30,913 nucleotides of DNA from Escherichia coli. Lineage in GTDB: Bacteria > Pseudomonadota > Gammaproteobacteria > Enterobacterales > Enterobacteriaceae. Below, piece after piece: positions 22,217 to 22,249 of this stretch. The translations under genes and the position numbers were made by a program. The notes beneath the pieces are model-generated. The model saw only the letters and a program-made list of their open reading frames with translations. It did no database searches and was not told where the DNA came from. The stretch is from assembly GCF_003334355.1 (NCBI RefSeq), contig NZ_QOWP01000039.1. One strand, 5' to 3'. The stretch's first letter is position 1; each line of letters starts with the position of its first letter.

Positions 22217-22249
22217 CGGATCATAGTCACTTTATGTGACTATGATCCG
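22217..22249 (+). terminator. Perfect 14-bp palindromic hairpin immediately after hdeD
   Basis: cggatcatagtcac tttat gtgactatgatccg, starting 18 nt after the hdeD stop. There is no clean U-tract, so it may be a terminator, an RNA stability hairpin or a dimeric protein site. Confidence 0.4.

Follow-up and report, generated by a model that had tools for sequence, protein, structure and literature searches.

The window analysed here, a stretch of 30,913 nucleotides from one Escherichia coli contig, represents the acid fitness island of that organism. Two genes on the - strand, hdeB (20598-20936) and hdeA (21040-21372), precede hdeD, gadE (ATG at 22998) and mdtE (from 23864 onward), all on the + strand. 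The hdeD promoter is activated by GadE. The 190-amino acid hdeD ORF (21627-22199, taken from the ORF list and bearing the name hdeD in E. coli records of RefSeq) ends with TAA at 22197-22199 (also from the ORF list), and a palindrome lies just beyond it, at the start of the 798-bp spacer separating hdeD from gadE. That spacer is the gadE promoter region of the gadE literature, with transcription start sites at -566 (P3), -324/-317 and -124; the P3 start site falls at approximately 22432 in the window.

The palindrome consists of a left (5') arm, CGGATCATAGTCAC (22217-22230, + strand), a 5-nt loop, TTTAT (22231-22235), and a right (3') arm, GTGACTATGATCCG (22236-22249), the two arms being 100% complementary in the repeat search. 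The inverted repeat originally predicted past hdeD, 14 perfect base pairs around a 5-nt loop, is exact in coordinates and sequence, and its placement relative to the gene is also correct: the palindrome begins at the 18th nucleotide past the hdeD stop codon, with 17 nt between TAA and stem. The stem, with 6 G-C pairs among its 14, folds in isolation at -23.5 kcal/mol as + strand RNA and at -22.9 kcal/mol as - strand RNA; the hairpin is found in both the MFE and the centroid structures of its 131-nt context (z about -3.8 to -4.2). The absence of a following U-run, likewise predicted, is borne out: the + strand continues past the stem as ATTAATAC, with 3 U in 8, and a U-rich tract is absent 3' of the stem (AUUAAUAC, 3 U in 8); the - strand continues beyond the stem as GGGTGACA, and there is no T-run on either strand. 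A consensus terminator scan of both strands did not call the hdeD hairpin, an Rfam scan of positions 20000-24000 at E <= 1 yielded no family overlapping 22200-22260, and no ORF of at least 30 amino acids lies over the hairpin on either strand. (Two other candidates were considered and set aside: a small - strand ORF, for which GGAG adjoins the hairpin and a usable start codon is absent on inspection of the sequence; and a mini-hairpin at ~22207-22216 as part of the element, which is not kept between strains.)

A stem of this kind is unlikely to have arisen by chance, as had been argued from the outset. Analytically, 8e-4 perfect inverted repeats of at least 14 bp are expected per window; no other perfect inverted repeat (loop 3-9) in the entire 30.9 kb is as long as the hdeD palindrome; and first-order Markov simulations of the window (n=100) generated longest perfect stems of 7-11 bp, with 0/100 reaching 14. 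The accompanying description of the surroundings as AT-rich needs tempering, local GC being 40-46% and the DNA only moderately AT-rich, but the improbability of a chance origin holds.

The palindrome is conserved in relatives, and it has changed in a compensatory way. In six of seven divergent E. coli strains the stem core, GGATCATAGTCAC, is unchanged; the seventh, E7-1N7, has one C-to-T change in the left arm. Strain 142, belonging to a lineage that is ~86% identical here, has replaced the closing C-G pair by T-A, with both sides changed. A protein-guided scan, with one genome per species, retrieved hdeD loci from Escherichia clades, E. whittamii, E. albertii and Kluyvera. Every Escherichia version has a 13-14-bp hairpin with a 5-nt centre 3' of hdeD; in other Escherichia the outer stem has been rewritten on both arms (GGATC/GATCC becoming GCCTC/GAGGC), and the distance from stop codon to stem, 17 nt here, grows to about 36-39 nt. 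The loop is free to vary: TTTAT, TTGAT and ATTAA occur within E. coli, and TTAAT, GCACA, TCATA, TTGTG and TTGTA are found as well. What is never acquired is a U-tract, with 1-3 U in the first 8 nt past the stem in 11/11 orthologues. A Dam/SeqA function (there is a GATC in each arm) was rejected as a conserved role because GATC is lacking from the GCCTC/GAGGC versions of E. albertii, E. whittamii and E69.

A hand-registered alignment of 10 distinct Escherichia versions gives quantitative expression to this pattern. In the stem, 95% of cells pair, and 3 of the 14 pairs (positions 3-4 and the closing position) are altered on both sides; covariation scores 0.237, compared with 0.109 in shuffles, 0/500 of which reach 0.237, and slid registers of the stem alignment are only 21-45% paired. 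Might the changes also reveal the strand on which the hairpin functions? A single transition turns a base pair into G.U as read on one strand and into A.C as read on the opposite one. Three single-side changes are compatible with the + strand (one in E7-1N7, two in E69), and three with the - strand (the internal A.C of E. whittamii, E1V33 and E. albertii, and two terminal pairs), so that this guide expresses no preference (3 vs 3 events). Selection for palindromy is clear, as judged from the alignment; comparison alone favors neither strand, and neither RNA nor DNA.

The palindrome is also an island. Between the E. coli type and the E. albertii type, identity is 0.76 in the stem arms, 0.28 in the loop (which has no invariant column), 0.51 in the spacer from 22263 to 22370 and 0.95 in the block from 22371 to 22440. 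A conserved stem next to a flank of such low identity marks the hairpin as an isolated conserved element, ~120 bp from gadE control DNA. The proposal that it sits where the control region of gadE begins is accordingly unsupported, since the conserved gadE block starts ~120 bp further downstream.

(A note on that block: 62/70 of its columns are invariant between the E. coli type and the E. albertii/E. whittamii type, which are 95% identical there. It contains the AppY motif ATGGCTGA at 22393-22400 and the gadE P3 core promoter, together with an inverted repeat, TTTCAAACATTA / TAATGTTTTAAA, at 22379-22390 / 22420-22431.)

Outside Escherichia, the hdeD gene of Kluyvera is followed by an 11-bp hairpin, also lacking a U-tract, with gadE convergent. 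As a separate observation, the gene order in Kluyvera cryocrescens (L014, 1501-2654) is unlike that of Escherichia: hdeD (+) and a gadE-like gene (-) converge, 56 nt apart, and share one common 11-bp hairpin with a T-rich tail on the gadE side only.

The search for further genomic copies that the original prediction had called for finds the element to be single-copy, with none elsewhere in E. coli genomes. A 201-nt query around the palindrome matches 5393/5426 complete E. coli genomes, once in each and always beside hdeD; the two "places" per genome reported for a 58-nt core reflect a self-match of the palindrome on the two strands, and hence one locus. Within the window, a half-site search allowing up to 3 mismatches returned 4 extra matches against 2.1 expected, that is, chance level. 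The hairpin has 0 matches in the phage collection. Plasmid copies were rejected, the sole matches being to 4.8-4.9-Mb records that are mislabelled E. coli chromosomes, and with them the notion of a dispersed repeat or mobile element: each E. coli genome has a single locus, and plasmids and phages have none. A metagenome scan with a degenerate core found only the hdeD locus, chance matches in coding sequence and one unrelated canonical terminator.

(Three incidental findings of these searches deserve recording. The PLSDB entries NZ_OL790696.1, NZ_CP141089.1 and NZ_CP134663.1 [H61-H63], of 4.8-4.9 Mb and containing the hdeD hairpin, are evidently chromosomes filed as plasmids. Contig NZ_JAUFQN010000010.1 [L012] of a "Flavobacterium paronense" assembly has E. 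coli acid-fitness-island DNA with HdeD 98% identical and a K-12-type hairpin, which is almost certainly assembly contamination. The unrelated metagenomic contig L062 has, at 1281-1320 and directly past a stop codon, AAAGTCATAGTCAC-CCGTG-GTGACTATGACTTT followed by TTTTATT, a canonical terminator that presumably shares its 10-bp stem core with the hdeD hairpin by chance.)

It is the mapping of RNA 3' ends that decides the strand, and the strand is +. A steady-state 3' end at MG1655 position 3657621 (Adams et al. 2021, PMC7815308, supplement 1, M63 0.4 sheet) corresponds to 22253 on the + strand of the window. It is represented by 1150 reads in M63 glucose at OD 0.4, is given with the flanking sequence CCCCGGTTGTCACCCGGATCATAGTCACTTGATGTGACTATGATCCGATTA|ATACTCTCTC, and is classified as "orphan" (PMC7815308). 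The end lies 54 nt past the hdeD stop codon and 4 nt past the stem (...GAUCCG-AUUA-3'), as follows from the sequence column of the Term-seq table, which covers -50 to +10 (a layout confirmed on SgrS, whose U-tract ends at position 51). Conversion between K-12 and window coordinates uses an offset of 3635368, verified with two anchors: the ArrS 3' end at 3657985 (-) falls at window position 22617, the last T of its - strand terminator T-run; and an end internal to hdeD, 131 nt into the ORF, places the hdeD start at 21627. The "orphan" label arises because the end is 54 nt past the stop codon, while the "primary" class requires 50 bp or less. On the - strand, none of the three Term-seq conditions lists a 3' end near the hairpin (PMC7815308). 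The 22253 end is reported in 1/3 growth conditions, with a modest read count; all the same, neither outcome named as counting against the original prediction is seen: the + strand data do show a 3' end at the site, and related strains keep the palindrome, with compensatory changes in its arms.

(Other 3' ends and hairpins of the region can be noted in passing. The hdeD-internal + strand end at window position 21758 [MG1655 3657126; 131 nt into the ORF; M63; Term-seq] lies inside a short terminator-like stem, 21754-21766, that the consensus scan flagged. On the - strand, ArrS stops at a canonical terminator whose hairpin occupies 22623-22647, and 982,952 Term-seq reads mark the 3' end, 22617. 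Read from the + strand, the ArrS hairpin lacks a U-run and has a Term-seq 3' end of its own, 22651, at precisely 4 nt from the stem; it seems to be another hairpin-bound end of the U-less type, for + strand transcripts that originate either as gadE P3 leader or as hdeD read-through. Farther downstream, in the gadE 3' UTR, 23643-23714 [+] matches the Rfam family ES205 sRNA [105 bits, E = 1.3e-18]; the match stops at an intrinsic terminator with a Term-seq 3' end at MG1655 3659081, window position 23713, and appears to be the gadE 3'-UTR sRNA GadF.)

Transcription seems not to stop at the hairpin. The same study reports, for the + strand, a bicyclomycin (BCM)-sensitive region of Rho termination that peaks at MG1655 3657733, window position 22365 (Adams et al. 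2021, supplement 2), 112 nt downstream of the 22253 end. The Rho score from BCM DirectRNA-seq is 6.83 (p = 2e-20), and reads upstream/downstream of the peak are 101/28 without BCM and 251/475 with BCM (PMC7815308). The peak is coarsely resolved because the score is computed from 800-nt windows; these span the gadE P3, P2 and P1 promoters, and part of the BCM effect may therefore reflect induction of gadE instead of read-through from hdeD. Growth conditions also differ, the Rho data coming from LB at OD 0.5 and the 22253 end from M63.

The DNA between hairpin and Rho peak is also distinctive in composition. The spacer from 22250 to 22370 is untranslated, C-rich and G-poor (rut-like) on the + strand in the composition profile: C/G is 1.4-2.1 in 80-nt windows and turns to 0.4-0.5 past 22380, the C-rich stretch ending immediately before the near-invariant gadE P3 promoter block. 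The 120 nt past the stem have a C/G of 1.77, which ranks them within the top 3.3% of 120-nt windows, and the same interval has a C/G of 1.5-3.2 in 10/10 Escherichia versions despite only 51% identity between species. The bias of C over G is absent in Kluyvera, whose DNA past the hairpin is antisense to the convergent gadE-like gene. (The spacer also contains an inverted repeat, TTGAAATAATAAC / GTGATTATTTCAA, at 22300-22331 and, within 22295-22331, a CATTGAAATAA box that is partly kept across the genus within divergent sequence; a known role was found for neither.)

What, then, is the palindrome for? It is probably the 3'-terminal protective stem-loop of an hdeD mRNA whose synthesis is stopped by Rho in the spacer and whose end is then produced by exonuclease trimming. 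This combines two options offered by the original prediction, protection of the hdeD 3' end and Rho-assisted or weak termination, which the 22253 end, the BCM-sensitive region and the C-over-G spacer together favor. The reading is preferred because the anatomy of the locus matches, feature by feature, a class described by Dar & Sorek (2018; PMC6061677), in which Rho-dependent steady-state ends lie directly downstream of stable stem-loops lacking U-rich tails: C is enriched over G past the stem-loop, termination occurs downstream, and PNPase and RNase II trim back (PMC6061677). At hdeD, too, a stable stem-loop is located directly upstream of a precise 3' end, the U-rich tract is lacking, C exceeds G downstream, and a BCM-sensitive signal, subject to the caveats given above on window size and growth conditions, lies beyond the hairpin. 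Two things set hdeD apart from that class: its stem is unusually long, perfect and kept across the genus, and its published end had been filed as an "orphan". The like behavior of the ArrS hairpin on the + strand and the U-less hairpin past hdeD in Kluyvera also speak for the protective-hairpin reading. The E. albertii/E. whittamii group, with an internal A.C mismatch on the + strand, counts against it.

The corresponding sequence of events would be the following. The ribosome would leave the message at the hdeD stop codon, and RNA polymerase would go on to transcribe the hairpin and then ~120 nt of untranslated C-rich, G-poor RNA. Rho would load on this RNA and release polymerase diffusely, upstream of gadE P3 (TSS ~22432). 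PNPase and RNase II, degrading 3'-to-5', would trim the unstructured tail until blocked by the 14-bp, -23.5 kcal/mol hairpin, leaving the defined end 4 nt past the stem and a stabilized hdeD mRNA. We infer that Rho acts specifically on transcripts derived from hdeD, that exonucleolytic trimming generates the end, and that the hairpin raises mRNA stability. The net outcome would be a stable hdeD message and, by virtue of a Rho stop placed within 22250-22370 just upstream of gadE P3, gadE promoters that are insulated from hdeD read-through. Elements of this kind are ordinary and well described. This particular hairpin is absent from the literature found: its 3' end sits in a public table, and we found no discussion of it; searches on hdeD with Rho or bicyclomycin, ProQ or terminators turned up nothing specific, and the TERMITe and SMRT-Cappable-seq supplements have no entry for hdeD.

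How does the hairpin compare with other 3'-end elements? REP elements, too, are extragenic palindromes that can stall 3' exonucleases where Rho-terminated genes end; they differ in being present in many copies, while the hdeD palindrome is single-copy per genome and, we take it, does not conform to the GC-rich REP consensus. The ArrS terminator hairpin, as seen from the + strand, lies in the same spacer and resembles the hdeD hairpin in its U-less Term-seq end at the same distance from the stem; it differs in being a true intrinsic terminator of an sRNA on the opposite strand, the hdeD hairpin lacking a T-run on both strands. Canonical intrinsic terminators share with the hdeD hairpin a comparable energy, a location just past the stop codon and a 3' end near the stem; they differ in possessing a U-tract and an upstream A-tract, neither of which is present at hdeD, where a Rho-sensitive signal lies downstream instead. 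The 7-8 nt U-rich tract that defines the canonical terminator follows the hdeD stem on neither strand.

That last resemblance raises the question of whether the hairpin itself contributes to termination, either as a weak non-canonical intrinsic terminator or as a pause site aiding Rho/NusG. Such a contribution, which is compatible with the protective-hairpin reading, is unlikely. The folding energy equals that of intrinsic-terminator stems, the 3' end is close to the stem, U-poor hairpins may be inefficient intrinsic terminators with Rho as a backup (Dar & Sorek, PMC6061677), and the 10-bp core recurs in the canonical, T-run-containing terminator of L062. Against this, no orthologue has more than the 3 U in 8 past the stem that are seen here, the consensus scan makes no call, the distance from stem to end is 4 nt compared with the usual 7-9 nt, and a BCM-sensitive signal farther downstream implies passage of polymerases beyond the hairpin.

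A more ambitious proposal would turn the Rho stop into a regulated gate: relief of termination in acid or stationary phase would allow hdeD transcription to read through into gadE, generating positive feedback, with the palindrome serving as the pause or entry point. (In an alternative version, the palindrome could be an operator for a dimeric factor bounding the H-NS/ArcA-bound gadE control region.) The large downstream effect of BCM, from 28 to 475 reads, is compatible with a gate, which we nevertheless regard as improbable. If it did exist, the acid-resistance circuit would have an extra positive-feedback arm.

Slightly less likely still is a role for the palindrome at the DNA level, as operator of a dimeric regulator or as cruciform site, acting at a distance on gadE P3 or hdeD. 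A dimer-binding site was among the options of the original prediction and has gained no positive support: the gadE, GadEWX, ArcA and AppY papers examined place no regulator at this position. It is true that the palindrome is perfect and its 5-bp centre spacing constant across the genus, that parallel changes in the half-sites would also fit half-sites co-evolving, that the wobble analysis expresses no strand preference, and that the element is inside the "P3" fragment (the 798-bp spacer) to which ArcA-P and H-NS bind in vitro. Yet the palindrome is dissimilar to the GadE and AppY motifs, and its TCAC...GTGA halves are, on our own inspection, arranged opposite to those of a CRP site; it has no second copy in E. 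coli genomes, plasmids or phages, and palindromic copies elsewhere in metagenomes amount to a single canonical terminator; ~120 bp of 51%-identical spacer separate it from the near-invariant P3 block (95%); and its central 5 bp are unconstrained.

Could the hairpin serve RNA of the other strand, stopping or stabilizing antisense transcripts (ArrS read-through, for example) before they enter hdeD? As - strand RNA it folds about equally well, the E. whittamii, E1V33 and E. albertii versions fold better on that strand (-22 compared with -18 to -19 kcal/mol), and the terminator scan flagged a small second hairpin followed by GTAATTATTG at 22220-22204 (-). However, the E7-1N7 and E69 versions favor the + strand fold, ArrS already stops efficiently at a canonical terminator 370 nt upstream on the - strand, and none of the three Term-seq conditions lists a - strand 3' end near the site; such a role is very improbable. 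As to a functionless chance palindrome or mobile-element relic, the 8e-4 expectation and the 0/100 simulations at 14 bp speak against the former, the single copy and its absence from plasmids and phages against the latter, and the compensatory changes across Escherichia amid diverging flanks effectively refute both, leaving them a negligible claim.

If the palindrome is indeed a protective 3' hairpin, a formerly "orphan" Term-seq 3' end can be assigned to hdeD, whose transcription unit would then have a ~54-nt 3' UTR and end at 22253 (MG1655 3657621). Of the 798-bp "gadE sensory integration region", the initial ~170 bp would be better described as hdeD 3' UTR and Rho terminator than as gadE control DNA. 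No concept is changed by this; its use lies in annotating the acid fitness island and in designing gadE promoter fusions, which are affected because constructs that start from -798 carry the hairpin and the rut-like zone along with the promoters.
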